DNA of 64,000 nucleotides from an uncultured virus (IMG/VR IMGVR_UViG_3300044679_000029). Taxonomy: Duplodnaviria; Heunggongvirae; Uroviricota; Caudoviricetes. The notes under the pieces were generated by a model. That model had not been told where the DNA came from. It made no database searches and saw only the letters and a program-made list of their open reading frames with translations. Below, piece by piece: positions 1 to 58,451 of the stretch. The DNA is taken from IMG/VR virus record IMGVR_UViG_3300044679_000029, positions 32,001-96,000 of that record; one strand, given 5' to 3'. Both the position numbers and the translations under genes were made by a program. The number at the start of each line of letters is the position of its first letter. Positions within the stretch are counted from its first letter, which is position 1.

Positions 1-161
1 TTTTCTAGGTGAATGCTAAACTTGGAACCAGCAATAGGAAAAGCTGCCTGGATACCCTCCAGGAGTTTTGTTCTTAATTGCTTGCGGTGTTCTTCGGCCG
101 GAAGAGATAGGGCTTCGAGAATCATGACTAATTATAGCCTTGGTCGGATAAGGGTGGAATG

Positions 162-171
162 TGGTATAAGA
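162..171 (+). promoter_or_regulatory. TGGTATAAGA promoter-like motif (extended -10)
   Basis: Same 10-mer at 351, 4248, 22135 and 57734, each upstream of + strand gene clusters. Confidence 0.6.
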
Positions 172-214
172 GATATGGTATACTGCAATATAACCATTCA
201 CCAAGGAGAATGCA

Positions 215-331
215 ATGTATTTTACTCTCGTAGCCTGTGTTGCTGTTGGCTGTCTTCCTGTAATCTGTGAGGGCATCAAGTGGTATTGGAAAACCGGTTT
301 TGCCTATATCTTCGACGGATTCGGCGATTAA
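215..331 (+). CDS. small hydrophobic hypothetical protein (MYFTLVACVAVG...)
   Basis: AAGGAG RBS upstream; follows promoter motif; 38 aa. Confidence 0.5.
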   Translation: MYFTLVACVAVGCLPVICEGIKWYWKTGFAYIFDGFGD

Positions 332-350
332 GCAATTAATCACCGTTTTA

Positions 351-360
351 TGGTATAAGA
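351..360 (+). promoter_or_regulatory. TGGTATAAGA promoter-like motif
   Basis: Repeated motif upstream of the small-gene operon. Confidence 0.6.
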
Positions 361-402
361 TATAGACATCTAAACCCCCATTTTCAGCCGGAGACCCCAA
401 AC

Positions 403-558
403 ATGGAAAAGCTCAAGAAGGCAGTCAACCGAACGGTTCGCGCGGCCCTGTTCACAATAGCGTTTTACACAATCTCATTCGGAGTAGCGTACGCTGTAAC
501 TGCGGCGTATGACAAACTATTCACCCCCAAATCCAAGGATAAGGAGAGCCGAAAATGA
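403..558 (+). CDS. small membrane protein (MEKLKKAVNR...)
   Basis: GGAG RBS, one hydrophobic segment, ATGA overlap with next gene. Confidence 0.6.
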   Translation: MEKLKKAVNRTVRAALFTIAFYTISFGVAYAVTAAYDKLFTPKSKDKESRK

Positions 559-695
559 TGAAGCTCGCAGATGCAATAGTCAAGACAGCCGTTGACACGT
601 TGTGTCTGATCGTCGCTGGCGCTTTCGTAATTGCACTCCTTGATTCTGAGGAAACAGAAGAAGATTCTTCTCCAGCCAAGCCGGAGGTTCATTAA
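555..695 (+). CDS. small membrane protein (MMKLADAIVK...)
   Basis: AAGGAG RBS, hydrophobic segment, acidic tail. Confidence 0.6.
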   Translation: MMKLADAIVKTAVDTLCLIVAGAFVIALLDSEETEEDSSPAKPEVH

Positions 696-696
696 C

Positions 697-1011
697 ATGC
701 AATACCAGGGTTGGAATGACTACTGGGTCATTCAGAGAAATCGCAAGTTCACGCAGTGGCTAAGCATTCTTCTTGCGGTCATTGCGCTGGTCATGTGCGC
801 GTTTGTAGCAAAGCGCGCACGCGCAGCAGAACCAGATGCCGCCGTAATGTTGCGACCTTGGCAATTCTGCCGTCGTCGCGTCGACAAGTATTCTCACAGG
901 CGAAAGTGGTGCTGGAACACCGACATCTGCTATAAATCACGCCAGATCTGCAACCGCTCTTTGACCGAGCAACTGCAATTTGAGCGTAGTACGGGTGCCA
1001 AAACCAGGTGA
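697..1011 (+). CDS. hypothetical membrane/secreted protein
   Basis: GGAGG RBS before ATG 697; TM segment; Cys-containing C-terminus. Confidence 0.6.
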   Translation: MQYQGWNDYWVIQRNRKFTQWLSILLAVIALVMCAFVAKRARAAEPDAAVMLRPWQFCRRRVDKYSHRRKWCWNTDICYKSRQICNRSLTEQLQFERSTGAKTR

Positions 1012-1298
1012 ACCCTCAACCAGGAGTACACTTGAAAAGATCAATACATAGCAGAGCAGAAGTGGATGAAATCATCGTTAGAACGTGTCGCATGGAATCA
1101 CAGGTAGAACTGTTGGTGATCCAAATTGAGGAAGCCAAAATAGAACTACCATTCTTGCCGCCGATGCTACAGGCGAGAACCCTCCAAAATATCATTCAAT
1201 GGCAGAGTGCTATTTCGGATGTAGAGCGAACCATTGCTCGGGCAAAAAAGGCGCTAGTAATGATAATAGCGTCGAACAAGGACGTAGCGCGCGCATGA
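1008..1298 (+). CDS. hypothetical protein
   Basis: GTGA overlap with upstream gene; tightly packed operon. Confidence 0.6.
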   Translation: MNPQPGVHLKRSIHSRAEVDEIIVRTCRMESQVELLVIQIEEAKIELPFLPPMLQARTLQNIIQWQSAISDVERTIARAKKALVMIIASNKDVARA

Positions 1299-1483
1299 GT
1301 AGAAGCAGTCGAAAGAAAGAAGATGCGAAGGTTCTTTGTTGGTACGTTCGGAGGCACCTCGGACGGAAGCACGATACCGACCTGTATATAAGAGCGGTAT
1401 TTGCCATCCACGAGTTCAGGGCTAAGTACCCTGAAGTTCGTGTTGAGGAGATAGCTAAGTATGGCGACAAAGCTGGCAGTTAA
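1295..1483 (+). CDS. hypothetical protein
   Basis: ATGA overlap; operon packing. Confidence 0.5.
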   Translation: MSRSSRKKEDAKVLCWYVRRHLGRKHDTDLYIRAVFAIHEFRAKYPEVRVEEIAKYGDKAGS

Positions 1484-1676
1484 CGTACACGACGACAGCT
1501 GTATTTCCTGCAAGAAGCCCGTCGATCCCTCGAAGCAACGACAGGCTTTCATCCACGATCACTGCGAGCCAATTCAATTTTGGCCAAAGTGGCGGCGAGA
1601 GCAGGTTTTCGTAGACCGCGAGAAGGTTCTCGCCAATCGGGCGAAGAAGCTCGCTTCAGCAGAGGCATCTCGGTAG
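1461..1676 (+). CDS. hypothetical Zn-binding protein
   Basis: CxxC...HxxC; GAGGAG RBS. Confidence 0.6.
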   Translation: MATKLAVNVHDDSCISCKKPVDPSKQRQAFIHDHCEPIQFWPKWRREQVFVDREKVLANRAKKLASAEASR

Positions 1677-1811
1677 ATGTGGGTGAGGACGCTGTGGGTC
1701 TTTGCGTCCCATCCTGTTTCAAAGAAGTTACTTCTCGTGCTCGGAACTGCGACGAAAAAGGCGCTCGGGTTCTGAACACACTGGTAGCAAACCCCAATCG
1801 GGAAGGCATTT

Positions 1812-2036
1812 ATGGGCAGAAAGCTTTTGAGGTTTCTCGACGAGTTGAACGCAAAATCAGCGGACCGTCTCCCCGAACACACGATAGCAAGATTCATCCG
1901 GGAAGCAGTTGGGACTGATTCACCCGTCGATAATGCAGAGCTTGATGCACAGCTGGATCAGCTGATTGGGCTTGCAAAGCAGGCCCGAAATCAGCTGAAA
2001 TCTAAGCACAAGGAAAACGCAGAATATGAGAATTAG
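1812..2036 (+). CDS. hypothetical protein
   Basis: RBS-like GGAAGG; overlaps S12 start. Confidence 0.55.
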
Positions 2037-2439
2037 TCAGTTGGTCCGTTTGGGCCGAAAGAAAGTCCACAAGAAGAGCAAGTCGCCTGCATTGATGGGC
2101 AGCCCACAACTCAGCGGGACTGTTCTCCAAAGCAAGGTCATGAAGCCAAAGAAGCCGAATAGCGCAAATCGTCACATCGCGCGCATCCGACTGAGTAATG
2201 GCCGTGAAGTCACCGCTTACTGCGGTGGAGAGAACTCCAACGTGCAAGAGCACGCTCACGTTCTCGTTCGCGGTGGCCGAGTCCCGGATTTGCCGGGTGT
2301 GAAGTATCACATCGTACGCGGCGCTTTGGATTATTCCGGCGCCAATTGCATGAGCAAGTGCACCGCTGAACCCGGCAACGCTGGTGACAAGAAGATGCGT
2401 AACCAGGGCCGGTCGAAGTACGGTGTGAAGGCTCATTAA
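2026..2439 (+). CDS. rpsL: ribosomal protein S12 (uS12) homolog, divergent
   Basis: [46 protein letters not shown] and RSKYGVK motifs of S12. Confidence 0.95.
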
Positions 2440-2444
2440 CAGAT

Positions 2445-2499
2445 TGACAAACAAGCGGACCGTAGGCTTAGAAGTAGCCATCGGTCCGCTTGTTTGTCA
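2445..2499 (+). terminator. 18-bp perfect stem-loop after rpsL (terminator or processing site)
   Basis: TGACAAACAAGCGGACCG (2445-2462) pairs with CGGTCCGCTTGTTTGTCA (2482-2499). Confidence 0.6.
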
Positions 2500-2849
2500 T
2501 GTTGTCTTGTGGACACACTAACCAAGGAATAGCAATATGTCAACCAAAGTAATCGAAGCCGAGATAGTACAACCGTCGTAAAGCCGGAGTTGATCGACAA
2601 CCGCGTGACGCGAGGCAAGCTCGGAGCGTTCAAGAACAGCCTCAAGGGTGGCGCCGCGCAGTTGGCACTTCCTCCCGCGAAGAAGAACAAGAAGACTAAG
2701 TAACACCTTGTGGGCACACCAGAAACAAACTAGACCACTTGGGGATGAGTCGGCTAATCCATAGCGTCTATCTCGCATCTGGTCATTTAAAGTGCTGGTC
2801 ACTGCCCCACGTTTTATGCCCCGTCGTAACACCAACCAAGGAGAACACA

Positions 2850-3062
2850 ATGTCGCTAGACACAGAGCCACTCGTATTCGATGTGCTTGGCCCGGATGGC
2901 GAGCCAGTTCAATTCGAAAGAGCACATAGCATTCCGCTGCGCGTCACTGAGAATGAATTGACGTGGCTGTTTGCTGTCGTGAAGAAGCACGATCCAAAAG
3001 GGCAAATGGAGAGCATCCATGAGCAGCTCTTGGCTCAACTCACAAGGTGGTCGAGCCTGTAA
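2850..3062 (+). CDS. hypothetical protein
   Basis: AAGGAG RBS before ATG 2850. Confidence 0.65.
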   Translation: MSLDTEPLVFDVLGPDGEPVQFERAHSIPLRVTENELTWLFAVVKKHDPKGQMESIHEQLLAQLTRWSSL

Positions 3063-3070
3063 TTAAGGTC

Positions 3071-3157
3071 GGGCCTGTGGCGAAACTGGTAGACGCACTG
3101 GACTCAAAATCCGGCGCCCTTCGATAAGGCATCTCGGTTCGAGTCCGAGCGGGCCCA
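3071..3157 (+). tRNA. tRNA-Leu(CAA)
   Basis: GGGCCTG/CGGGCCC acceptor stem, TGGTAGAC D arm, CTGGA-CT CAA AA-TCCGG anticodon arm, long variable arm, GGTTCGAGTCC T arm. Confidence 0.93.
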
Positions 3158-3169
3158 TAAGGAGATAAC

Positions 3170-3466
3170 ATGCAACAAGTTTTCATCGTAATTGGTTCTA
3201 CCGGCGAGTATGACGACCATACTGAATGGACGGTAGCGGCGTACGCGACGGAGATCGAAGCAACTTGGCATGCGCGCAAAGCTGAGATGTGGGCGGATGC
3301 TAATGCGGAACAGTTTAGGGAACATAGTTGCTCTTGTAGTCCACTAGTAAATCCGTACGACGAGGATATGCAAATGGATTACAGCGGCACTAGCTATTCT
3401 GTTCAGGGGCCGCTCGCTATTCTAACGCGGAAACAAACTGAGGACCGCGTTAAGGGAATAACATGA
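3170..3466 (+). CDS. hypothetical phage protein
   Basis: AAGGAG RBS; 98 aa. Confidence 0.7.
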   Translation: MQQVFIVIGSTGEYDDHTEWTVAAYATEIEATWHARKAEMWADANAEQFREHSCSCSPLVNPYDEDMQMDYSGTSYSVQGPLAILTRKQTEDRVKGIT

Positions 3467-3599
3467 AAATCATCTGCGACAGGAACACGAAATGACAACG
3501 GTAGAAATAACAAAAACGACATCGAAGTCGCTCTGAGCAGGGCCACCGAAGGAAACGTTACAATTTATGTCGACGATCTTGTTCGACTAGGAGACTAAA

Positions 3600-4232
3600 A
3601 TGAAATGGTTCTCAGAAGTAAAACCACTCGGGGACATTCGTCTCCCGGCTTTCATGGGTATCAGAATTCAGATGATGCCCGTGATTCTGGGCTACATGGA
3701 TAGCATTCCGTACGAGCTTCGGCACTTTCGAGAGACCATTCTCAGAATATTCTGCTTGATGGATCAGAAGCACATCGGACAGACTGGCTACTTGACCATC
3801 GATGAGAAGTTCGTCAGATTCGGTCAATTCCACCGGCGGTCGGGTTTGCACGTCGATGCTGGTGGGTGGGGTGGCAGTGGACCAAGGCATCCCGCCGCGA
3901 GCGCAGACAATGGCATGATCGTGACGCAGAGCCACGAGCACACTGTTGCCTACCACCAAGCATTCGAAGGTGAGATTGGTGAAGAGGGTGATTGCAAGTG
4001 TTTGCGTCGACAGGCAATAGCACCGAATCCTCTCAAGGCTTTCAAAGCCTACTGGCTCAGTGGGCTGACAGTCCACGGACACATCTCGCCAATGCTTCAA
4101 GACACAGCACGGCAATTCGTGCGACTGAGTTTGCCGTCTGACGCGCCGTGGTTTGACGGCTACACCGAAAACCCTTTGGGCGTCAAACCTACAGGTCCGG
4201 TGCTACCAAGACGCAAGTTCATGGATTTGTGA
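3600..4232 (+). CDS. putative 2OG-Fe(II) oxygenase-like phage protein
   Basis: HRRSGLHVD (HxD), later H (TVHG) and RQFVRL. Confidence 0.55.
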   Translation: MKWFSEVKPLGDIRLPAFMGIRIQMMPVILGYMDSIPYELRHFRETILRIFCLMDQKHIGQTGYLTIDEKFVRFGQFHRRSGLHVDAGGWGGSGPRHPAASADNGMIVTQSHEHTVAYHQAFEGEIGEEGDCKCLRRQAIAPNPLKAFKAYWLSGLTVHGHISPMLQDTARQFVRLSLPSDAPWFDGYTENPLGVKPTGPVLPRRKFMDL

Positions 4233-4241
4233 TTTCGGGTC

Positions 4242-4257
4242 AAAATCTGGTATAAGA
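4242..4257 (+). promoter_or_regulatory. AAAATCTGGTATAAGA promoter motif
   Basis: Identical 16-mer at 22129 and 57728. Confidence 0.7.
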
Positions 4258-4259
4258 TA

Positions 4260-4910
4260 TTGATCCGCGAATCATCGCTTCGCGATGCATGAGGCGGTAG
4301 ATCAATCCTGGTCTGGATAGTTCCAGGACCTTGGGTCTATCGCCTCACGTTAACTCTGGGCCTGTAAGCGTGTGTGCCAGCACAGTATGAGAACATCCGG
4401 TCGTTACAGCCGGTTAGGGACCAGTGACCCCCGGACATTGGTCCGGGGATAGGCCTGATGTAACCTCCGTCGCTGGCTTGGCGACGAACCTGAAATGCGT
4501 GCTCATTTGTGGGCCGCTGATTGTAAGGGACAAGTCAAACCACTTGGCTGCGGGTCGCCACCGCGGTGTTTCGAGAATTATAAGTGGGCCAGGGTTTCTC
4601 GTTACCTGGCACTTTTCAAACTGCCCGGCCGAAACGAGACCGGTTTAAAGTGTTCGCGAACTTCAGATCAGTTGGGACTGAACTAGTTCCCAGGTCAAGT
4701 CGCGATCTAAAAATCTCCTACAAAAAGCCCGATCCTGCAAGACCGGGTAATAAAAAGGAGTAGCCTTGCAGGGCGTTTAACGGGATGACGTAAATCGGGC
4801 GCGCGAGGCTGATACCTTGCGATGCTGACAGAATACGAAAACTCTCGTCAGGTTTGTGCTCTGGACCCATGGGTGGACGCCGGGGCACAAACCTGCTGTG
4901 TTCTTCGCAG
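4260..4910 (+). ncRNA. candidate large structured RNA / leader
   Basis: No credible ORF; successive hairpins e.g. 4290-4347, 4429-4448, 4468-4486, 4851-4893; starts right after the promoter motif. Confidence 0.55.
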
Positions 4911-4941
4911 CACAAACCCGTAGCAAGAAAGAGGCAATCAC

Positions 4942-5127
4942 ATGAGAACCGTTGAGTACTACTCCAAACTGAACGCGATCTGTGCTGAGTACTGCCCCAA
5001 GCTGGACGCGTGCGACGCTGAGTCCTGCTCCAAACTGAACGCGCTCAAAGCCGAGTTCAAGTCCAAGCTGGACGCGCTCGACGCTGAGTCCCACCTCAAC
5101 CAGCCCGCCGTCAGCACAAACCCGTAG
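4942..5127 (+). CDS. 11-mer repeat mini-protein 1
   Basis: GAAAGAGG RBS; SKLxAxxAEYx repeats. Confidence 0.75.
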   Translation: MRTVEYYSKLNAICAEYCPKLDACDAESCSKLNALKAEFKSKLDALDAESHLNQPAVSTNP

Positions 5128-5145
5128 CAAGAAAGAGGCAATCAC

Positions 5146-5382
5146 ATGAGAACCGTTGACAAATTCAATTCCAATGAGTACTGCTCCAAGCTGGACGCGA
5201 TCAATGCTGAGCGCGACTCCAAGCTGGACGCGATCAATGCTGAGTACTTCTCCAAGCTGGACGCGATCAATGCTGAGCGCGACTCCAAGCTGGACGCGAT
5301 CAGTGCTGAGCGCGACTCCAAGCTGGACGCGCTCGACGCTGAGTACCACCTCAACGAGCCCGCCGTCAGCACAAACCCGTAG
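5146..5382 (+). CDS. 11-mer repeat mini-protein 2
   Basis: Same RBS and repeats. Confidence 0.75.
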   Translation: MRTVDKFNSNEYCSKLDAINAERDSKLDAINAEYFSKLDAINAERDSKLDAISAERDSKLDALDAEYHLNEPAVSTNP

Positions 5383-5400
5383 CAAGAAAGAGGCAATCAC

Positions 5401-5817
5401 ATGAAAACCTTTGTTGACGAAATCAAGTCCAAGATGAACGCGTTCAGTGCTGAGTACTTCTCCAAGCTGGACGCGCGCGACGCTGAGTACAAGTCCAGGC
5501 TGGACGCGATCAGTGCTGAGTACAAGTCCAAGGCTGAGTTCAAGTCCAAGCGGAACGCGATCAATGCTGCGTACGACTCCAAGCGGAACGCGATCAACGC
5601 TGGGTACTTCTCCAAGCTGAACGCGTTCAGAGCCGAGTGCAGGTCCAAGCTGAACGCGCTCAGTGCTGAGTACGACTCCAAGCTGAACGCGATCAACGCT
5701 GGGTACTTCTCCAAGCTGAACGCGTTCAGAGCCGAGTGCAGGTCCAAGCTGAACGCGCTCAGTGCTGAGTACTTCCCCAAGCTGGAAGCGCTCATTGCTG
5801 AGTACCACCTCAACTAG
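5401..5817 (+). CDS. 11-mer repeat mini-protein 3
   Basis: Same RBS and repeats; longest copy. Confidence 0.75.
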   Translation: MKTFVDEIKSKMNAFSAEYFSKLDARDAEYKSRLDAISAEYKSKAEFKSKRNAINAAYDSKRNAINAGYFSKLNAFRAECRSKLNALSAEYDSKLNAINAGYFSKLNAFRAECRSKLNALSAEYFPKLEALIAEYHLN

Positions 5818-5859
5818 CCCGCCGTCAGCACAAACCCGTAGCAAGAAAGAGGCAATCAC

Positions 5860-6024
5860 ATGAGAACCGTTGACAAATTCAATTCCAAGCTGTACGCGCT
5901 CGGTGCTGAGTACGACTCCAAGCTGTACGCGATCAACGCTGAGTACAGATCCAAGCTGAACGCGATCAATGCTGAGTACTTATCCAAGCTGAAAGCGCTC
6001 GACGCTGAGTCCCACCTCAACTAG
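5860..6024 (+). CDS. 11-mer repeat mini-protein 4 (54 aa, not in ORF track)
   Basis: MRTVDKFNSKLYALGAEYDSKLYAINAEY...HLN*; same RBS. Confidence 0.75.
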   Translation: MRTVDKFNSKLYALGAEYDSKLYAINAEYRSKLNAINAEYLSKLKALDAESHLN

Positions 6025-6066
6025 CCCGCCGTCAGCACAAACCCGTAGCAAGAAAGAGGCAATCAC

Positions 6067-6348
6067 ATGAGAACCGTTGACAAATTCAATTCCAAACTGA
6101 ACGCGATCAGTGCTGAGTCCAGGATAAACGCGATCAGTGCTGAGTACGACTCCGAGCTGAACGCGATCAATGCTGAGTACTGCTCCAAGATGAACGCGCT
6201 CAGTGCTGAGTACTGCTCCGAGCTGGACGCGTGCGACGCTGGTCACTGCTCCAAACTGAACGCGCTCAAAGCCGAGCTCAAGTCCGAGCTGGACGCGCTC
6301 GACGCTGAGTCCCACCTCAACCAGCCCGCCGTCAGCACAAACCCGTAG
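6067..6348 (+). CDS. 11-mer repeat mini-protein 5
   Basis: Same RBS and repeats. Confidence 0.75.
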   Translation: MRTVDKFNSKLNAISAESRINAISAEYDSELNAINAEYCSKMNALSAEYCSELDACDAGHCSKLNALKAELKSELDALDAESHLNQPAVSTNP

Positions 6349-6362
6349 CTCAAACCGGAGGT

Positions 6363-6572
6363 GTGCAAGTGATAATCAAGCCGAATCAGTTGACTCCCAT
6401 CCCAGAGGGCATCAAGATCAAGAAGATTTCGGCAGGCGAAACCAGCGGAGTCTTCTTTGTGATCAGCCACATCACAAGGTTCATGTCGCGGGAAAACAAG
6501 AATTCGCGGCGTAAGCCAGACCAGTATCAGCCCAGAAATCTCTCGGGCTTCGATCCGGTCGAGAGCGAATAA
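6363..6572 (+). CDS. hypothetical protein
   Basis: GGAGG upstream (start may be GTG 6369); follows the array. Confidence 0.5.
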   Translation: MQVIIKPNQLTPIPEGIKIKKISAGETSGVFFVISHITRFMSRENKNSRRKPDQYQPRNLSGFDPVESE

Positions 6573-6724
6573 TCTTCTAGACTTTCTCCCGGGCTAAGGT
6601 CATGCCTGGTAATGGCCCTAATTAGTCAATGCGGGCTAGAAAGCGGGAATCCCATGAAGTGGACCTAGCGATCCGACAATCTAATGCATAGATTAGCACT
6701 AGAATAACTCTGAGAAAACTGTGA

Positions 6725-6837
6725 GCCCACAAGAAGATATCTTCTTGTATATACGTTTATAACCCCCCAATCTGACAGAAATTGTCGGAACGGCAATGGG
6801 AATAAACGTGTATACGTGAGGATATCTTCTTGTGGGC
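6725..6837. repeat. long imperfect inverted repeat with internal 20-bp palindrome
   Basis: GCCCACAAGAAGATATCTT...TATACGTTTAT versus ATAAACGTGTATAC...GATATCTTCTTGTGGGC. Confidence 0.85.
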
Positions 6838-6861
6838 AATTAAGATTTGTCGGTTTTTAGG

Positions 6862-6890
6862 TTGACTTCCTATAACATCTGAATTATACT
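6862..6890 (+). promoter_or_regulatory. sigma70-type promoter
   Basis: TTGACT-17-TATACT upstream of portal. Confidence 0.7.
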
Positions 6891-6936
6891 AGACATGATT
6901 AGCGGAACTATAATTTAGTACTAGGAAGACAAACTA

Positions 6937-8688
6937 ATGCCTTTATATACCGACGCAGTTCAAGGGAGCTTATTTCCCTCTAGTAACAGTCAACCCAATC
7001 CTTTATTTACTTATCTCCAGGGGTTTATTCCCAGAAAACTCAAGGACCTATTTAGGTGGTTGGAATATCTATCCTATAACTCAACGCATATCTATGCCGG
7101 ACTATATAAGCTCGCGGATTATTCGGTTACAGACGTTCAATACTTAACCGATTCCACCCAGGAAAAAACTCGGCATAAAGATTTACTTGAGAAGACGTTA
7201 CACATTAAATCGTTACTTAAAGCAGCGTCACGCGACCGCCTTATATACGGAAATAGTTTCATATCTCTATACATGCCGTTTATCCGCAATATGGTGTGCA
7301 CTGGTTGTAAGATTAAGCGCAATATAGATACTGTCGACTATAAGTTTAAGTGGAAGAATCTTACGTTTAACTGGCTTTGCAAGGAATGCGGCCAATCAAA
7401 CATGACTGGCGTCGACGATTTTGAGGATATCAAAGTCCCCAACCATAAGCGTATTAACGTTATCCGGTGGGACCCCAAGCTGATAGACATCGATTATAAT
7501 CCCCTAACCGGTGAAAGCACAATCTACTACACGATTCCAAAAGAAGTTAAGGAGAAGATTCGTGCTGGTAATAAGCATCTTCTAAATTCGATGCCTGTTG
7601 GATTTTTAAAGGCCGTCAAAGAAGATCGTCTATTTAAGTTCGACAGAGGTCAAGTCTTCCATATGAAGATCGATGCACCAGCCGGTATCGATTCTCAGTG
7701 GGGCTTCTCACCGTTACTAGCAACTATTCCTAGCTTCCTGTATGTGGCCGTATTACGTAAGGCCAACGAAGCCATCGCATTAGATTTCGCTGTACCTCTT
7801 CGTATTCTTCACCCGGCACAATCGTCTTCTAACGCTGATCCGGTGTCGACTATTAACTTAGGTAACTGGACTGAGAAGACACGCGAAAATATTCGTAAGT
7901 GGCGTCGAGACCCCTTGCACATCATGTTTGCGCCTGTGCCATTAGGAATAACTCAGATGGGTGGGACTGCAAAATTGCTCTTAACTGCAACTGAGATTCG
8001 TGACGTAGAGGATAACATTATTACTGCTCTAGGTATTCCTCGTGAATTTATTTACGGCGGGATGACTATGACCGGGTCTAGCGTAACACTACGCATGTTA
8101 GAGAACCAACTTCTAACTCAGACCAAAGATCTAGAAGACTTAATGGGTTGGATTGACGACAAGTGTGCGACATTCTTAGGGTGGGGTAAGATACATACTG
8201 AGCTACTGCCGTTTAAACTTGTGGACGATGTTGCGCAAAAAAATGTTCTAGTTCAAATTAATCAAGTTAAACCGATTATTTCTGATACTACAATCGCAGA
8301 AGTCTTCGGCTACGATCTTAAGAAAGAGCGAAAGCTTAGAATGCAAGAAGCATTGGACGAGGCGCGCTTCCAGATGGAAATGCAGAAGAGCGTTTCTGAT
8401 ATACAAAATAACCTTGGCCAGCAAGCACGGACACAAGCGGGATCCGCACCGCCATATAATCCTCAGCAGATTGTACAACAGGCTGATCAACTCGTACAAC
8501 AGTTATCGGGACTCGATCACGGTTCCCGCAAATCTGAACTAGATAAACTAAAAAAAGAAGACTTCGTTCTATACGCGGTAACAGCGAAACGTCTTGAGGA
8601 CTATAACAATACTCAAACTCAGGCAGCCAAAAGTCAACAAACAGGTGGCGGACAACCGGCACCGCAACCGTCGGGCGGAGCAAAGTAG
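6937..8688 (+). CDS. portal protein
   Basis: Portal-like layout (D.LIYGNSF, QVFHMK, WGFSPL, IITALGIPREF), Q-rich tail, 583 aa. Confidence 0.75.
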   Translation: MPLYTDAVQGSLFPSSNSQPNPLFTYLQGFIPRKLKDLFRWLEYLSYNSTHIYAGLYKLADYSVTDVQYLTDSTQEKTRHKDLLEKTLHIKSLLKAASRDRLIYGNSFISLYMPFIRNMVCTGCKIKRNIDTVDYKFKWKNLTFNWLCKECGQSNMTGVDDFEDIKVPNHKRINVIRWDPKLIDIDYNPLTGESTIYYTIPKEVKEKIRAGNKHLLNSMPVGFLKAVKEDRLFKFDRGQVFHMKIDAPAGIDSQWGFSPLLATIPSFLYVAVLRKANEAIALDFAVPLRILHPAQSSSNADPVSTINLGNWTEKTRENIRKWRRDPLHIMFAPVPLGITQMGGTAKLLLTATEIRDVEDNIITALGIPREFIYGGMTMTGSSVTLRMLENQLLTQTKDLEDLMGWIDDKCATFLGWGKIHTELLPFKLVDDVAQKNVLVQINQVKPIISDTTIAEVFGYDLKKERKLRMQEALDEARFQMEMQKSVSDIQNNLGQQARTQAGSAPPYNPQQIVQQADQLVQQLSGLDHGSRKSELDKLKKEDFVLYAVTAKRLEDYNNTQTQAAKSQQTGGGQPAPQPSGGAK

Positions 8689-8728
8689 CATTTGAAAGTA
8701 TTACGTACCACCAACAAGAGAGTAAATC

Positions 8729-9076
8729 ATGCCTCGAAGACCAAAAACAGATCCTAATACAGACTTCGCTAATTTAGTTAACGAGATTAGTAATGCTAAT
8801 ACTGAAATAGATTTGGCACCAGCGCACCCTACACAGAATCAATCGGCGTCATCTGACTTGCTAGACGACCATTTTACATACACGTGTAAGGTCGAGCGAT
8901 TTGAAATTGGTACCGATAATAGTAAATACGAACAATTAATGACGGATGGCGTAAACGGTAAGATTAATATTATTCGTGAGCGGTTTGTTGATACTAAGGA
9001 AGGCAAAACGTTTTGTGTCCTCGTGTATCTTGTTCCGAAGCCGAAGCTCCTGAAGCCTGCTCCTCCGCCGCTATAA
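8729..9076 (+). CDS. hypothetical protein
   Basis: Co-oriented ORF between portal and helicase. Confidence 0.7.
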   Translation: MPRRPKTDPNTDFANLVNEISNANTEIDLAPAHPTQNQSASSDLLDDHFTYTCKVERFEIGTDNSKYEQLMTDGVNGKINIIRERFVDTKEGKTFCVLVYLVPKPKLLKPAPPPL

Positions 9077-9091
9077 GATAAATATCAAATC

Positions 9092-10873
9092 ATGACAGCA
9101 ACCCTGGAATTAAAATTCGCAGGTGCACTACCTCTATTGTCTCTGCCAGCAAGCACGCCTGGTGCCGACAGAATCTTTGGGGCACAATTATCTAAAGATA
9201 AAACGAAATTTCTGTACCCAGGTTTTTTCCCACAGCATGAAATAGTTATTAGCGATATAAAAACCAGCGAATTGAACGTAATCATTCCTGAAAACGTGGC
9301 TAATCATATTACACAGGAGAGTAGTCATAAGGATCTAATTTTAGACCCAAACTTCCAATTTATCACTAAACCATTTGACCATCAAATTGAATCGCTAAAG
9401 TACTGCATTAGCCGGTTGCGTAGCGCACTTTTATTAGACTGTGGTTTGGGAAAATCTAAAGTCGCAATAGACATGTTGCGCTACCAAAAGTTTATCGGTA
9501 AGCCATGCAAGACTATTGTTGTGTGCCCGAAAACTGTGTTGTTTAGTTGGGAAAACGAGATAGCTAAACATAGCGGAAATGAACTAACAACTACTGTTAT
9601 AGATGGTACGCCTAAGAAAAAATTAGAGTTACTTAACAAGGATACCGACGTCTATCTTATTACATATAGCGCTCTAGCCAAAAAAGAATTTCTTAAAACT
9701 GTAATCGATATTATTCCCTATGATACAGTTATATTGGACGAGAGTCACAACCTACAAAGTCCGTCTTCGCAGAAGACTAAAGCGTGTTTAGCCCTATGCC
9801 AAAAAGCAGCCAGACGCGTTATTATGAGCGGGACCGTAACTTTTGGGTCGCCCATTCATCTATATGGTCAATTAAAATTCCTTGGTAATTTTCTAATACC
9901 GGAAGGCGATTCGTGGAAGTTTTGTAATCGATTCGTTAACTACGGACAAAAGTTTAATCATAAGGTTATTGTCGGATATAAGAATACTGACGTACTGGAG
10001 AAGCGCCTTTCCAGTGTTAGTGTGAAATACACGAAGGAGGTTTGCTTAGATTTACCTGAACGGTACATAATCGATGAGCCGTATCAGGTATCAGAAGAAC
10101 AAAAACAAGAATATAATGCATTCATAGAAGCGCCCATGCAAGAAGTTGCCTCGCGTTTAAACGTAAGTAATGACGCGGCGGCGGCAGTACGACTAATAAA
10201 GTTAACACAAATTCTATCTGGCTTTCGAATAGAAAGCAATAAAGACCATAAAATTTGTGATAATTGCGAGTTCGTAAATGGGTGTGTTGAGAATAAAATT
10301 CTACCGTATACCAACGATTGTCAAAAAATAAAAATATCTCCCCCAGACACAATTCATAAATATCCAAATCCCAAACTAGATCGAGCCGAGAACTTATTAA
10401 CTAGTATTCTCTCTGAGCCGACTTCAAAAGTGGTGGTATGGTACCATTACAAACTGGAGCTGGAGTCTATAGAAATGATGTTGCACGCCTTGGGCGTGCA
10501 GGAGATTATAATAAATGGCAGTAAAGATTCAAGAAGTATTAGAACTGATATTGAGCGGTTTGAAACGGATCCAGGAGTTAGGGCCTGCGTTTGCCAAGTT
10601 GGTTGCTCTAGCGGTTTCACTATTTGTAGAGCTAACTACGTTATCTACTACGGTGTAGATTTCTCGCTGGCTAACTACCTCCAGAGTATCGACAGGAATT
10701 ACCGCATCGGTCAAGACCGTAAAGTAATTTGCTATAGATTGTACGCACCAGGATCGGTAGAAGAATTGATCTTCAAAGCTCTAGATAGCAAAGAAGAAAT
10801 CAAGAACGCCCTTATGGGCAAAACCGAAGTCTCTGAGATGCTACGATATATAGTTAGACCGAAGCCGCTATAA
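9092..10873 (+). CDS. SNF2-like superfamily 2 helicase
   Basis: DCGLGKS, ILDESH, MSGT, QSIDRNYRIGQ motifs. Confidence 0.9.
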   Translation: MTATLELKFAGALPLLSLPASTPGADRIFGAQLSKDKTKFLYPGFFPQHEIVISDIKTSELNVIIPENVANHITQESSHKDLILDPNFQFITKPFDHQIESLKYCISRLRSALLLDCGLGKSKVAIDMLRYQKFIGKPCKTIVVCPKTVLFSWENEIAKHSGNELTTTVIDGTPKKKLELLNKDTDVYLITYSALAKKEFLKTVIDIIPYDTVILDESHNLQSPSSQKTKACLALCQKAARRVIMSGTVTFGSPIHLYGQLKFLGNFLIPEGDSWKFCNRFVNYGQKFNHKVIVGYKNTDVLEKRLSSVSVKYTKEVCLDLPERYIIDEPYQVSEEQKQEYNAFIEAPMQEVASRLNVSNDAAAAVRLIKLTQILSGFRIESNKDHKICDNCEFVNGCVENKILPYTNDCQKIKISPPDTIHKYPNPKLDRAENLLTSILSEPTSKVVVWYHYKLELESIEMMLHALGVQEIIINGSKDSRSIRTDIERFETDPGVRACVCQVGCSSGFTICRANYVIYYGVDFSLANYLQSIDRNYRIGQDRKVICYRLYAPGSVEELIFKALDSKEEIKNALMGKTEVSEMLRYIVRPKPL

Positions 10874-11677: not shown

Positions 11678-12646
11678 ATGAGCGATAAACTGAAGGTATT
11701 TGGTAATGCTATAGAGCTTGCCGATACGCCAAAACCGACAACCAGAATCGCTTGGTTGGACGACATCGGCGGCGGTAATCCTTATCAAGATGGTGTAGAA
11801 AAATTAATTAGCGAAGGCAAGATTAAACGTAGCGAGTTTACTTTGCCGTTGCCGTATCTATCTGTGAGCCAAGTAGAACAATATTTGAAGTGCCCAAAAC
11901 AGTATGAATTTAGATATGTGAATGGAATCAAGTCTCCTCCCGGTATCGCGATGGTCCAGGGCAGTACAGTTCATAAAGGACTTGAGGCCGGCTATAAGTA
12001 CATGAAGAAAAATAAGATCGTTCCGCCGCTGGAAATGATTCTAGATGAATACTCTGGCGAGTTTACGAAGAATCTAACCGGCGATATTGTGTTAGGAGAG
12101 GGCGAGACCGAAGCTGCAACTAGGGCCCAGGGTGAAGCCTTAATCAAGAAGTGGCACGAAACTAAGGCACCCCTAATAAAGCCCGTTGCTATAGAATCTA
12201 AATTCATTGCCGAATTTGGTGGCGTGCCTGTAGTAGGTGCCTTAGACCTAATCGACCGTGTTGACATTCCATTGTCCGAATCGCAGCGTTGGGAAAACAA
12301 GACGGATGACAGCACGAATCCGATGCTTGATATGATCGTCGATAATAAGGTCGTGGCTAAGACGTATTCGCAGGCCGACGTAAACAATTCATTGCAAATG
12401 AGTTTGTATGCTTATGCTACTGGTATACCACGCCAACGATATGATTTATATGTTAAATCTAAAGTACCCAAACTCGAAGAAATGCTTACCGGCCGTGATG
12501 AAAAAGCTATTAAGTGGGCAGCTAAGATCTTTAATAATGTAGCACGACAAATTTCCCAGGGTAACTTTCCAGAATGTAGTCCATCGTCGTGGTGTTGTAA
12601 CGCCAAGTACTGCGGTTATTTTTATTCCTGTAGAGGTAAGGAATAA
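11678..12646 (+). CDS. Cas4/RecB-like PD-(D/E)XK exonuclease
   Basis: LSVSQ..YLKCP, GSTVH, G.LDLI, IVDNK, QMSLYA, C-terminal Cys cluster. Confidence 0.85.
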   Translation: MSDKLKVFGNAIELADTPKPTTRIAWLDDIGGGNPYQDGVEKLISEGKIKRSEFTLPLPYLSVSQVEQYLKCPKQYEFRYVNGIKSPPGIAMVQGSTVHKGLEAGYKYMKKNKIVPPLEMILDEYSGEFTKNLTGDIVLGEGETEAATRAQGEALIKKWHETKAPLIKPVAIESKFIAEFGGVPVVGALDLIDRVDIPLSESQRWENKTDDSTNPMLDMIVDNKVVAKTYSQADVNNSLQMSLYAYATGIPRQRYDLYVKSKVPKLEEMLTGRDEKAIKWAAKIFNNVARQISQGNFPECSPSSWCCNAKYCGYFYSCRGKE

Positions 12647-12763: not shown

Positions 12764-13330
12764 ATGGGTCCATTACAATATTTAATAAATGCGTTGATTA
12801 GTATGTTTAGTAAGAAGCAGGTAGTTGATGAGAACCCACTAATTACTACTGCCCCACCATCTGACTCCCCAAACGGAGTACAGTTAGACGCGCTCATAAC
12901 AAAACACGAGGGTATTCGTCTAAACGTGTATAAAGACCAATACGGCAATCCGACTATTGGGATAGGACACAATCTCAATGCTTCACCACTTCCGGTGGGA
13001 TGGACAACGCCATTAACGGTTCAACAGGCGCAATCACTATTACAGAATGACGTCTGTGTTGTTGGTGACAAACTATCGGCCTCGTTATCGTGGTTCGAGG
13101 AGCTTGAAGACTCAGATCAAGTTCGTGCAGCTGTGTTAGTGGACATGGGCTTTAATATGGGTGTCGCAGACTTACTGACATTCAAAACGTTCTTGTCTCT
13201 GGTATCAGCAGGCGAATACGACAAAGCAGCAGATGATTTAACGAATACGTTGTGGGCGAAGCAGGTGCCTGTAAGAGCAGCCGAAGATATACAGATGATT
13301 AGAACTGGGCAGTGGCCCGAAGGAATTTAA
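12764..13330 (+). CDS. endolysin, T4-like/GH24 lysozyme
   Basis: HEGIRL.VYKD..G.PTIGIGH; VDMGFNMG; WAKQVP.RA. Confidence 0.9.
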   Translation: MGPLQYLINALISMFSKKQVVDENPLITTAPPSDSPNGVQLDALITKHEGIRLNVYKDQYGNPTIGIGHNLNASPLPVGWTTPLTVQQAQSLLQNDVCVVGDKLSASLSWFEELEDSDQVRAAVLVDMGFNMGVADLLTFKTFLSLVSAGEYDKAADDLTNTLWAKQVPVRAAEDIQMIRTGQWPEGI

Positions 13331-16594: not shown

Positions 16595-17425
16595 ATGTCT
16601 GATATATTAAAGAAATATGCCCCCTGGAGCTTATCAAAAGCACAGATGGCTAGTCAATGCACTCTTAATTTTAAGTTCACATATATAGATAAACTACCAA
16701 GGCATACCACCACCGGTTCAGCAGCACGGGTCGGTTCGGCGGCGCATAAGTGTCTCGAACTTTTACTTAAGGGTGAAAATATAAATCGTGCAATAAACGT
16801 TGGAGCGGTCGATAACAAATTAGTCTATAACGAAATTGAAGAATTAGCATGCATGAAAGACGGCATGCTCGATTTTATTAATCGACTAGCCAGGTGGAAG
16901 TCTACTCACCCCGTCGAGAAACAGTTCGTCGAAATGAAGTTTGGTATCAATGAAGATTTTAAGCCAACTGGGTTCTGGGATAAGGACGCCGTATTCCGTG
17001 GCGCTTTCGACCTTGGAATGAAAACACAGAAGAACGGGTTGGTTATTATCGACCATAAGTCCGGAACAGAAAAGGCCATATCGGCCTATAAAGACCAGTT
17101 AAATTGCTACGCTCTATCCGGGCAAATTCTATTTCCAGAAATTACTGGTGTTGACACAGCGGTTCATTATATTCAGTCTAAAAATATTGTCTGGGGTGAC
17201 TACATCCCCTCCGAAAAAATTAAGTCTGAGCTATTTCCGTGGCTTGTTGCATTTCTTGAGCAAGCGACTTATAACGTAGATAGTGAAATAGCGAAACCAA
17301 CAAAGGGTTGGTTCTGTAATTTTTGTAGTTATAAACCGATTTGTCCCGCCTGGAATGATACCAAGGTTGCAACCCCAATTGAAGCCGACGTCCCACTAGC
17401 AAAAAACGATCCCTCAAATATATGA
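16595..17425 (+). CDS. second Cas4-like PD-(D/E)XK nuclease
   Basis: WSLSK...QC, GSAAH, RGAFDL, IIDHKSG, QLNCYA, CNFCSYKPICP. Confidence 0.85.
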   Translation: MSDILKKYAPWSLSKAQMASQCTLNFKFTYIDKLPRHTTTGSAARVGSAAHKCLELLLKGENINRAINVGAVDNKLVYNEIEELACMKDGMLDFINRLARWKSTHPVEKQFVEMKFGINEDFKPTGFWDKDAVFRGAFDLGMKTQKNGLVIIDHKSGTEKAISAYKDQLNCYALSGQILFPEITGVDTAVHYIQSKNIVWGDYIPSEKIKSELFPWLVAFLEQATYNVDSEIAKPTKGWFCNFCSYKPICPAWNDTKVATPIEADVPLAKNDPSNI

Positions 17426-20538: not shown

Positions 20539-22095
20539 TTAGTATACATCGAATTTACCGAGTTGCGTCATCGCAGCCAGTTGGGCAAACGTTAAACTAT
20601 ATAAACTATCATCCGGCAATAGTGGAGATCGTTTCCATAATTTACGATTTGAATTCTCGCTAATCTCTTCAAAATCAGCGAGCACATCATCAAACATAAC
20701 TTTACACTGTTGTTCTTTCGGGAATATCCAATCGCCGCGTTTTACAGATAGCATAAACGTGTCGACCACAGTAGTTTTGTCTGCTATATAACGGTCTTGC
20801 TGATTCCACCTCAGAGGTTTTGCTTGACTCCCCAACTGTACCTGAAAAATAGTATTAGCTGGTAAATTTTCTTTAAGGAGGCTATTCGGGACAGCGCCAC
20901 CGCCGGCATCGCAAAAACATATAGACGGGCCATAACGTCGAAGTATATCAGTCACCTGACGCACTTCCTCACTCGGTGAGATACCTGACGCGAAGATCTT
21001 ATGATGAATAACTCGGTATCGACCGTCATGCGTAATTCCTACTACAGTACAGGCGGTACGAGACATGGCGTTTGGACCAGTAGAGCCGCCAGACCAGTCG
21101 ATGCCTGCGACAATACCTTGGTACTTCTTTTTTTCGATCATCTGAAAGCCGGCATTAATATCTAGCGTTGGGTCACAAAGTGCCTTAAGATCTTCCAAAC
21201 CAACTAGACGTGTGCCTAATGAATCTGATACACCGAGCACTTCGTTCAAGAAAGAACTGGGAGAATACAGTTCCATTTTCTCCAAGATACGTGCCCAGCG
21301 CGACGGACTTTCGCTATTAAGCGGAAGAATTAATTGGCTAATGTGATAACCTTTTATTCGAGCGGTCGGTTTAAGATCGACCCACTTACCACTTCGTGCG
21401 TGAAGCGTATGACCGCAACTAGCGCAGATAATCCCCTTAAGACCAATCGAACGCACTGAATCAATAAAATTTGATTTATTACAACCGTCGCACTTCATCA
21501 CCCACTCGGATGAAGTTGACTGATCAAACAACCATTGTATACCGTTATCGTTAGTTTTAGGTGTACCAGTATATAATATATAACCGTAAGGGCTGTTAGC
21601 TGAACACTCCTTAATAATCGGGAGTAGAGAGATAACATCTAGATCCTGGACCTCGTCCAAGAAGATTCGATCAGCTGAAATACCTCGGATACGATCTGCG
21701 TCTTCCTGCGCGTATGACAAAGCAATTTCCGACCCGTTGGACATAATCTTTAAGAACACGTTTGCAGTAGATCCATAACCACAAAAATTACGACGCACCA
21801 GCGGGGAGTAATTCAATGTCTTAGACAGACGCGTAGTACTAAATTTTGAAGTCTGGTTCTCCGACGGCGACACGTATAACGTCTTCCAGTGTGCTCTAGC
21901 TATACTCTCTGAGATAATGAAGTTTGAGGCCATCGTAGACTTGGAGCACTGACGACCAGATTTAACAATAATTTCTGGCGCGTTACGATCATATATGTCG
22001 TAGGCCCACGGGTAGTCGCGTAAAGATACTGGTTTCCCGTCTAAGTATAATAGACTTTCAACCAGCCTAGATTTGGTTACATTGTACCGGCTCAT
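20539..22095 (-). CDS. terminase large subunit (gpA-like)
   Basis: KSGRQCSKST Walker A, RGISADRIFLDEVQD, GTPKT, CxxC/CxxC, AGIDW nuclease, PDD. Confidence 0.9.
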   Translation of the reverse strand: MSRYNVTKSRLVESLLYLDGKPVSLRDYPWAYDIYDRNAPEIIVKSGRQCSKSTMASNFIISESIARAHWKTLYVSPSENQTSKFSTTRLSKTLNYSPLVRRNFCGYGSTANVFLKIMSNGSEIALSYAQEDADRIRGISADRIFLDEVQDLDVISLLPIIKECSANSPYGYILYTGTPKTNDNGIQWLFDQSTSSEWVMKCDGCNKSNFIDSVRSIGLKGIICASCGHTLHARSGKWVDLKPTARIKGYHISQLILPLNSESPSRWARILEKMELYSPSSFLNEVLGVSDSLGTRLVGLEDLKALCDPTLDINAGFQMIEKKKYQGIVAGIDWSGGSTGPNAMSRTACTVVGITHDGRYRVIHHKIFASGISPSEEVRQVTDILRRYGPSICFCDAGGGAVPNSLLKENLPANTIFQVQLGSQAKPLRWNQQDRYIADKTTVVDTFMLSVKRGDWIFPKEQQCKVMFDDVLADFEEISENSNRKLWKRSPLLPDDSLYSLTFAQLAAMTQLGKFDVY

Positions 22096-58187: not shown

Positions 58188-58388
58188 ATGACAGAACAAG
58201 AACGACTCGCGGCTATGCACTGTCCAGGACATAAGGACATGGCAATGGTCTGTGAGATTTGCGCAGCCAACGAAATGAAAATAGTAGCCGGAGAAGAGCG
58301 GGCTAAAATCATAGCCGAATTAAAGGTCGGTGGATTTGAGGACGCGGTTAAGAGTTTAGAAGCAGCGATAACTGTTTCTGGCCGCTAG
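58188..58388 (+). CDS. hypothetical protein
   Basis: CxxH...CxxC; end overlaps tRNA. Confidence 0.5.
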   Translation: MTEQERLAAMHCPGHKDMAMVCEICAANEMKIVAGEERAKIIAELKVGGFEDAVKSLEAAITVSGR

Positions 58389-58451
58389 CTCAATTGGTAG
58401 AGCAGACAATCTATAATTGTCTGGTTCCTGGTTCGATCCCAGGGCGGCCAA
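58379..58451 (+). tRNA. tRNA-Ile(UAU), atypical C33
   Basis: TGGCCGC/GCGGCCA acceptor, GCTC-AATTGGTA-GAGC D arm, GACAA-TCTATAA-TTGTC anticodon arm, CCTGG-TTCGATC-CCAGG T arm. Confidence 0.8.

Follow-up and report, generated by a model that had tools for sequence, protein, structure and literature searches.

S12 and the ribosomal proteins of viruses

Ribosomal protein S12 (uS12, encoded in bacteria by rpsL) abuts helix 44 (h44) and the A-site codon-anticodon helix, and it governs the accuracy of decoding, translocation and the response to streptomycin. The subject here is a homologue of S12 encoded by a large phage of soil and freshwater. Its gene lies at positions 2026..2439, on the plus strand, of a 64,000-nucleotide stretch of DNA (hereafter the window), which comprises bases 32001-96000 of the 117101-base IMG/VR virus record IMGVR_UViG_3300044679_000029; the completeness of this record is estimated by CheckV at 65%.

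Ribosomal proteins have been described from viruses before. The main text of Mizuno et al. 2019 (PMC6375957) names bS21, bL12, bL9, bL31 and bL33 as exchangeable proteins and makes no mention of S12 or uS12. The main text of Al-Shayeb et al. 2020 (PMC7162821) gives S4, S1, S21 and L7/L12 for huge phages and leaves S12 unnamed, and a preprint on PhiMa05 reports bS1, bL21, bL27, bL33, uL11 and uL1. As far as the first two of these texts go, the likeness to the present case lies in a phage-borne ribosomal protein that is proposed to replace the host copy. The difference lies in the proteins themselves, which are described as loosely bound and exchangeable, whereas S12 adjoins the decoding site.

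A first-pass annotation of the window, made from its sequence alone, had likewise held that the viral ribosomal proteins usually reported are exchangeable ones and not S12. This agrees with the main text of PMC6375957, but PMC11748809 lists S5, S12, S18, S20, S21, L7/L12 and L33 in huge phages of a glacier foreland on the basis of KEGG annotation. The S12 of that list is, like the one described here, on huge-phage genomes from soil. It differs in that the passage names it in a list and gives no phylogeny, residues or analysis of the sequence. Thus, a phage S12 has already been listed once in print, without analysis, and full-text searches of a limited library brought up no analysis of a phage S12.

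An intact S12 gene on phage DNA

The reading frame at 2026..2439 begins with ATG and encodes 137 amino acids without interruption. Its product matches the Pfam profile PF00164 (Ribosom_S12_S23) with 100 bits against a cut-off of 22.3 (E 7.9e-29, residues 17-103), and solved S12 chains in the PDB, including those of chloroplast, Thermus and E. coli ribosomes, match residues 3-121 with E ~1e-35. An AlphaFold2 model built from a 119-sequence alignment has an overall predicted local distance difference test (pLDDT) score of 81, with ten-residue blocks at 83-97 through residue 100. Confidence is low for residues 106-137, an insert at residues 108-123 having a pLDDT of ~51-67. When this model was used in a Foldseek search of the PDB, the best 50 matches were all S12 chains (TMt 0.64-0.81), and the protein is predicted to adopt the oligonucleotide/oligosaccharide-binding (OB) fold core of S12. 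The gene is genuine and undamaged and encodes a phage homologue of bacterial uS12, and the claim of a full-length S12 on phage DNA stands.

The start of the gene overlaps by 11 nucleotides a 74-amino-acid open reading frame (ORF) at 1812..2036 (plus strand), as the first-pass annotation had described, and the overlap may allow translational coupling. This ORF has no family match; nor do the two small ORFs that precede it in the same string, at 1008-1298 and 1461-1676, also on the plus strand. The absence of rpsG and fusA after the gene was likewise borne out: a tblastn search found no homologue of S7 or of elongation factor G (EF-G) across the 9.5 kb downstream, and the gene is located outside an rpsL-rpsG-fusA (str) operon. 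Directly 3' of the stop codon lies a very stable hairpin followed by a U-rich stretch (2445..2499, plus strand), with a minimum free energy of -43.1 kcal/mol and a z of -8.9 (equally stable shuffles, 0/200). Although missed by a simple terminator scan, it is predicted to be terminator-like or to stabilise the transcript. A gene for tRNA-Leu(CAA) follows at 3071..3157 (plus strand; ARAGORN call, Rfam 53 bits), 630 nucleotides downstream of S12.

The S12 gene sits on bona fide viral DNA and not on a host flank, since the DNA carries phage hallmark genes, belongs to an IMG/VR virus record and is bridged at this locus in other assemblies. The large terminase subunit (TerL; 20539..22095, minus strand; phrog_675, E 4.7e-61) marks a tailed phage. 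PHROG matches also identify a helicase (9092-10873), an exonuclease (11678-12646), an endolysin (12764-13330), a DNA polymerase (17422-20109) and a ribonucleotide reductase (32781-35714), along with an ATPase and an HNH endonuclease.

Within this genome, S12 lies in a compositional island at 996..6500 (edges approximate), where the GC content is 0.50-0.55 as against 0.40-0.46 in the flanks. The trinucleotide correlation of the island with the rest of the genome is ~0 to -0.24, that of both flanks 0.75-0.92. Because the island is foreign in composition to both flanks, it must be asked whether bacterial DNA was mis-joined into a phage contig, a possibility that the first-pass annotation had itself put forward as fatal to its proposal. 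GenBank provides precedents for this. There, tblastn finds S12 in 15 phage records, all at below 60% identity to the window protein (maximum 54%), and the three that were checked (MT836236.1, OR846589.1 and OR844998.1; filed as phage, UNVERIFIED) all carry a full rpsL-rpsG-fusA set, that is, bacterial DNA.

Logan contigs from four runs of four studies were therefore placed on positions 1-9000. Peat run X2 has a contig at 567-2209 that spans the left edge of the island into S12 and a second at 6066-6800 that spans the right edge, both with 0 differences. A second peat run, X3, has a contig at 59-1315 with 178 extra letters at 995/996 and also covers 2037-3306 (from 12 nucleotides inside S12 to the gene end, plus the tRNA) and 6323-6722. 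Freshwater run X4, from a different study, covers 6480-6782 and also 1915-2371, where it differs at 3 places; two of these make N72G, at a position that varies within the S12 subclade defined below. As contigs of other samples bridge the island edges, the island belongs to the phage and the S12 locus is not a chimera. Moreover, the two flanks share one composition, rpsG and fusA are missing downstream, and a 210-amino-acid gene inside the island (3600..4232, plus strand), of unassigned function, belongs to a phage family, phrog_8970. A mis-joining artefact is thus largely refuted and would now be very surprising.

Stand-alone S12 genes in other viral records

S12 is not confined to the phage of the window, as six more IMG/VR contigs carry a stand-alone S12 gene. 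These relatives were recovered by an alignment-based scan, whereas a single-protein scan gave none. S12, S7 and EF-G were taken from the fetched loci and then sought by tblastn over all loci. At GTDB species-representative loci, rpsG follows S12 in 77 of 80 cases, two of the others being contig ends and one a stand-alone gene (L048). At metagenome loci it does so in 74 of 80, with five contig ends and one locus, L143, without S7 within 2.5 kb. Among 11 IMG/VR loci, rpsG is present after S12 in four, which are host flanks; one is a contig end and six are stand-alone. The 155 rpsG-linked S12 (77 from GTDB, 74 from metagenomes and the four from IMG/VR host flanks) served as the cellular comparison set.

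The six stand-alone genes are on contigs of 11 kb (L002), 442 kb (L003), 193 kb (L004), 23 kb (L005), 128 kb (L008) and 96 kb (L009). None has S7 or EF-G in the 8 kb downstream of S12, and ribosomal protein L14 is found in 0/6 of the records. The terminase family of the window, phrog_675, recurs in three of the six, and the identity between the TerL of the window and that of the L009 phage is 43.6%. Around the viral loci S12 alone matches, apart from a weak match between the upstream ORFs of L003 and L004. There are tRNA genes around S12 in L003 (3), L004 (19) and L005 (13): those of L004 (1-5000) and L005 (7499-13711) form dense arrays beside the gene, and in the 442-kb L003 phage record a tRNA-Arg at 8457-8553 lies ~60 nucleotides after it. 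In the record of L004, the terminase match (G003:C1:135533-138238) is in two pieces within one 997-amino-acid frame, which suggests an inserted domain or an intein. The stand-alone GTDB locus, L048, is from a Rickettsia endosymbiont of Cardiosporidium cionae. Its S12 is a cellular one without rpsG or fusA within 3 kb downstream; it contains RVPDLPG and has the longest branch of the tree (1.13).

Separation from cellular S12

A protein search over 5.8 billion clusters, in which the best 8000 candidates were scored, gave five close relatives of the window S12 among the matches listed: P0002 (88% identity), P0004 (72%), P0003 (70%), P0006 (65%) and P0007 (64%). These, which together with the window protein make up a subclade, come from metagenomes only. 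Below them is a band of matches at 56-65% identity, and the first listed matches that bear an organism name are from Planctomycetota, Gemmatimonadota and Kiritimatiellae, at 58-59%. A scan of GTDB reached a top identity of 59% among the 600 rows listed, with mixed phyla. Near identity to a cellular S12, another finding that the first-pass annotation had set against itself, was not seen among the matches listed from either search, the best cellular identity being ~59-62%. When metagenomes were scanned with the subclade alignment, the matches listed were cellular-type S12 only, at no more than 66% identity. A further metagenomic S12 of 179 amino acids, P0005, contains an internal duplication of ~40 residues (PKKPNSA to RGGRV twice); as a probable artefact of assembly or gene calling, it was omitted from trees and alignments.

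Phylogeny had been proposed as the means of telling a viral clade from a recent host capture. The trees are quick ones of ~135 columns, with most inner forks unresolved. In a tree of 97 rows, 69 cellular-side rows split from 28 others with a support of 88 in the Shimodaira-Hasegawa-like approximate likelihood ratio test (SH-aLRT). Of these 28, one is the window S12, six are the stand-alone viral S12 and five are the close relatives, the remaining 16 being further metagenomic S12. Together with its five close relatives, the window protein forms a clade, starred in the tree (98), with a branch length of 0.53. A subset of 49 rows, picked before the result was seen, omitted 48 cellular or metagenomic rows. 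In the tree from this subset, 25 cellular rows, which include Verrucomicrobiota, Hydrogenedentota, Planctomycetota, Chloroflexota, Bacteroidota, Bacillota, Pseudomonadota and Gemmatimonadota, are on one side of a branch with an SH-aLRT of 98. The window S12 falls outside this cellular side, together with the six stand-alone IMG/VR S12 and 17 metagenomic S12 whose context is unread. An approximately unbiased (AU) test on the 49 rows did not reject a single clade of the 12 viral and subclade rows (p 0.64).

Identities over the core of the protein (residues 3-105) give a similar picture. Cellular S12 are on average 78.8% identical to one another, with a minimum of 64.1%, whilst the window S12 has a mean identity of 62.9% and a maximum of 68.9% to them, and the subclade a mean of 58.6%. 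The window S12 differs from bacterial uS12 in having 57-69% core identity to any sampled cellular S12. Judged from these comparisons, it is in a lineage apart from all sampled cellular S12, lies within the most derived subclade of that lineage, and appears not to be a recent host capture. Those members of the lineage whose context can be read are all on viral contigs, stand alone, and are often beside phage tRNA genes.

The best match of the window TerL (78% identity) and the S12 P0004 are both reported on a Joint Genome Institute (JGI) contig of 98217 bases and, judging by the equal reported sizes, probably belong to one sister phage. On that assumption, the two phages are further apart in S12 (72%) than in the terminase (78%).

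Residues changed and kept

The numbering of the window S12 equals that of E. coli and Klebsiella from P41 to G105, there being no indels between 41 and 105. It was checked on the mutant table of PMC4182516, where P41, K42, K43, K87, D88 and P90 correspond to P41, K42, K43, P87, D88 and P90 of the window. The six subclade members (63-88% identical to the window protein) have 59 invariant columns. Residues kept in all six are Q5, R11, P27, G31, P41-A47, R49, L56, E61, Y65, G68, Q74, H76, V79, R82-G84, V86, D88-V92, Y94-H95, R98-G99, D102 and G105, and towards the C-terminus R125, R129-S130 and Y132-G133. As the first-pass annotation had stated, the conserved loop PKKPNSA (P41-A47) and the Asp at 88, the one that is methylthiolated in E. 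coli S12, are retained. In the decoding loops, therefore, PKKPNSA is fully kept, and D88, L89, P90 and G91 are kept but follow a proline at 87. In likeness to bacterial uS12 the phage protein has the same Pfam family and OB fold, the PNSA loop, D88, P90, G91, Q74-E75-H76 and the RSKYG tail; in contrast to it, the phage gene stands alone without rpsG and fusA, and its product has at least eight invariant positions changed, K87P and a 16-residue insert.

At eight positions, the residue found in 155/155 cellular S12 is replaced in the subclade: C33 by V (6/6 members), V36 by S (5/6), T40 by K (6/6), K50 by H (6/6), I66 by C (5/6), H71 by S or G (6/6), L73 by V (6/6) and S77 by A or H (5/6). The states of the window protein, V33, S36, K40, H50, C66, S71, V73 and A77, each occur in 0/155. 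The window also has T38V (T38 in 154/155), L48N (N in 0/155; N or Q in the subclade), G70N (N in 0/155) and R30S (S in 2/155, R in 148/155), and further changes in the window or subclade are K29L (window) and V32T. The N-terminal P-T of 153/155 cellular S12 is absent. The substitutions named in the first-pass annotation (K29L, R30S, L48N, K50H, G70N, H71S and K87P) are thus all present when set against the 155 cellular S12; it had overlooked C33V, V36S, T40K, I66C, L73V and S77A, as well as T38V.

Not every departure from the bacterial consensus is peculiar to phages, however. K87P is found in five of six subclade members, with H in the sixth, and cellular S12 have K in 138/155 and P in 8/155; since P87 occurs in Dehalococcoidia-type cellular S12, K87P is not phage-specific. 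The same holds for the insert site. The insert had been described as a Cys-containing segment of ~15 amino acids; it comprises 16 (residues 108-123, codons at 2347..2394, plus strand), with Cys108 and Cys112, ahead of the conserved R125-N-Q-G-R-S-K-Y-G tail. These columns are gaps in 148-153 of the 155 cellular S12, but Verrucomicrobiota (L017, L019) and Hydrogenedentota (L038, L059) have inserts at the same place, between G105 and R125, and Hydrogenedentota share S30 and T32 with the phage protein as well. Unlike the phage S12, these cellular genes are followed by rpsG and fusA, keep all the cellular-invariant residues and are on the cellular side of the tree. A metal site formed by the insert cysteines was considered and rejected: the pattern is not conserved, P0004 having no insert Cys and P0006 one.

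The other six viral S12 retain most of the cellular-invariant residues. They share the insert site, a variable T40, S57 (5/6) and a polar residue at 78 (4/6). Across the 12 viral-type rows, position 57 is S in 11, as against 25/155 in cells, and position 78 is H, Q or T in nine, as against 5/155. Overall, the subclade has fixed new residues at positions unvarying in sampled cellular S12 while keeping the decoding-loop and tail motifs.

Several of the altered sites, or their neighbours, have documented roles. Changes at P90 distort h44, and substitutions at the decoding interface of S12 generally lead to hyperaccuracy and resistance (PMC3884664). K87R causes streptomycin resistance, whereas dependence results from an added K87, from D88E and from changes at P90 (PMC4182516). 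Compared with these streptomycin-resistant or hyperaccurate rpsL alleles at K42 and K87, the phage S12 is likewise substituted at K87, with K42 kept; it differs in having Pro there (His in one sibling), a state that is fixed in a natural lineage and shared by the eight cellular S12 counted above. On the factor side, T57, H76 and V78 form the pocket for EF-G domain III and dityromycin, T57 and V78 being sites of error-prone mutations; dityromycin and GE82832, both of which bind to S12 only and require H76, overlap EF-G domain III and the ribosome recycling factor (RRF), and H76 is also involved in EF-Tu signalling (PMC5960728). Contact of S12 with EF-G domain III is reported in PMC5207388 too. 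The viral changes at 57, 71, 73, 77 and 78 thus surround a known factor-docking and drug pocket, in which Q74-E75-H76 is kept.

These residues also bear on whether the gene was captured from an unsampled host lineage, with the derived residues being simply those of the host's own S12. Such a source is improbable. It would draw support from the unread context of P0002, P0003, P0006 and P0007, from a cellular comparison that covers the matches listed (600 GTDB rows, 8000 protein candidates), and from the derived states that cells do possess: P87 in 8/155, S30 and T32 in Hydrogenedentota, and the insert in that phylum and Verrucomicrobiota. It is opposed by the complete absence of the eight window states from the rpsG-linked S12, by the nearest relatives of known context, which are all viral, by the reported placing of both the P0004 S12 and the 78%-identical terminase on 98217-base JGI contigs, and by the finding of the subclade in metagenomes only.

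A possible phage-type small subunit

The explanation preferred here has two parts. That the gene encodes a uS12 homologue of a separate, viral-context lineage, and of a derived subclade within it, is held with high confidence. That the protein is incorporated into ribosomes is tentative, a little short of an even chance, and the whole statement, a phage-type S12 lineage whose product enters host 30S subunits and gives them altered decoding and factor surfaces, hangs about evenly in the balance. Under this mechanism, a small operon of early type would supply the phage S12 during infection, and the host's newly made 30S subunits would take it up instead of the host S12. The phage S12 would still bind 16S rRNA via the conserved PNSA loop, the R82-H95 loop and the C-terminal tail; the conservation of these rRNA-side motifs argues that it still docks at the S12 site. 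Two surfaces would be altered: the h44/streptomycin side, by K87P, and the elongation-factor side, by S57, S71, V73, A77 and H78 around the kept Q74-E75-H76. As the new residues cluster in sequence at the K87 loop and at 57/71-78, they may alter dealings with h44, streptomycin-type ligands, EF-Tu, EF-G and RRF. The outcome would be a shift of tRNA selection or translocation in favour of phage protein synthesis and, possibly, a changed sensitivity to S12-directed antibiotics. That tRNA genes recur near S12 is in keeping with a translation module.

A number of points weigh against incorporation. S12 is not among the exchangeable proteins favoured in viruses according to the main text of PMC6375957, so that the phage protein could be incorporated only if 30S subunits were assembled anew during infection. 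The replacement of at least eight residues that are shared by all 155 cellular S12 could just as well reflect a release from ribosomal constraint, and the assignment of residues to a factor-facing side is built on three residues named in one review (PMC5960728). Genomic context is unread for four of the five subclade siblings and for 12 insert-bearing metagenomic S12. A RimO-type domain, S21 and an EF-Tu-type GTPase were not found in the phage record, at its completeness of 65%, which thus shows no broader set of genes for remodelling the ribosome. The RNA evidence is weak: a metatranscriptome contig at 1868-2071 reaches the start of S12, but DNA carry-over is possible, and the RNA contigs (X5) have a depth of 0 over 2101-2400, leaving most of S12 uncovered, which, being contig-based, is uninformative on expression. 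A bolder version of the incorporation mechanism, in which large phages of several related lineages would keep a long-diverged S12 in a tRNA-linked module and build a phage-type 30S with altered decoding and factor-docking surfaces, is correspondingly doubtful.

S12 is known as an RNA chaperone in the splicing of phage T4 introns. The main rival to incorporation is an extraribosomal role, in which the protein would have left the ribosome and would act as a chaperone or binding regulator of RNA, or as a decoy for some host factor whose usual partner is S12. It is unlikely, somewhat more so than the bolder version above, although it accommodates several observations: the changes at the at least eight cellular-invariant positions, which suggest altered constraints, the loss of the N-terminal P-T, and the absence of S12 from the exchangeable ribosomal proteins in the main text of PMC6375957. 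What such a role leaves hard to explain, if there is no ribosomal site, is the strict subclade-wide conservation of P41-A47, R82-V86, D88-V92, Y94-H95, R125 and R129-G133. Rfam at gathering thresholds finds no group I intron in the 64-kb window, nor any family besides tRNA, and the intron-chaperone version is thus unsupported.

The island and its neighbouring features

The content of the island is plastic between samples. Joint 995/996, its left edge, is polymorphic, with the 178 additional nucleotides in a peat assembly and unrelated sequence before 996 in a freshwater contig. In one freshwater contig, 4907 is followed directly by 6333, with 1425 nucleotides of a repeat array missing. No att-like direct repeats of 11 nucleotides or more were found around the island. 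The island gene at 3600-4232 has homologues of at most 51% identity, on contigs up to 547 kb; for eight small ORFs of the island, searches of PHROG and Pfam gave no match, phrog_8970 for 3600-4232 being the sole hit.

It could be supposed from this that S12 is a passenger of a recently swapped island, without selected function and decaying. The foreign composition of the ~5.5-kb island, its differences between samples (the 178-nucleotide insertion and the 1425-nucleotide deletion) and the lack of a close copy of gene 3600-4232 on the 98217-base contig all lean that way. A decaying gene, however, would hardly combine an intact frame with 59 columns that are unchanged across six divergent proteins, or show derived states that are fixed across the subclade and not scattered, or recur in seven viral records with different neighbours. 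A passenger is, accordingly, slightly less probable even than capture from an unsampled host.

The repeat array itself comprises five tandem small ORFs of 54-138 amino acids at 4942-6348 on the plus strand. Four begin with MRTV(D/E) and one with MKTFVDE, and most end in HLN(Q/E)PAVSTNP. They are made of a 33-nucleotide (11-amino-acid) repeat of the SKLDAINAEY type, and the length of the array differs between samples. An antisense ORF of 360 amino acids at 4777-5859 is probably a shadow of these repeat ORFs. Within 1-9000, the depth of metatranscriptome contigs is greatest over the noncoding stretch at 4233-4780 (16-30, as against ~2-6 in the majority of covered bins elsewhere). This stretch has a folding z of -3.8 (equally stable shuffles, 0/100) and no Rfam match, and it is possibly a structured RNA or a leader for the repeat genes. 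A long, near-perfect inverted repeat (6725-6839 and 6862-6890), with a weak, sub-threshold mir-1277 match on both strands, lies at the right edge of the island, just upstream of the best sigma-70-like site (10/12 matches) and of a 583-amino-acid gene at 6937. Elsewhere in the window, ARAGORN calls a tRNA-Ile(TAT) at 58379-58451, which Rfam does not report at the gathering threshold.

Implications

The virus-encoded ribosomal proteins described so far are peripheral, exchangeable ones, and S12 is a protein of the decoding site. A lineage of phage S12 with new residues at positions invariant across phyla would amount to a natural experiment on which parts of S12 tolerate change. The entry of the phage protein into ribosomes, if it occurs, would be evidence of a remodelling of the decoding centre itself by phages. 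Should the bolder version hold, in which several large-phage lineages build a phage-type 30S, a virus would be rewriting core decoding machinery, beyond the peripheral ribosomal proteins, and a possible side effect would be ribosomes insensitive to the S12-directed antibiotics that are common in soil.

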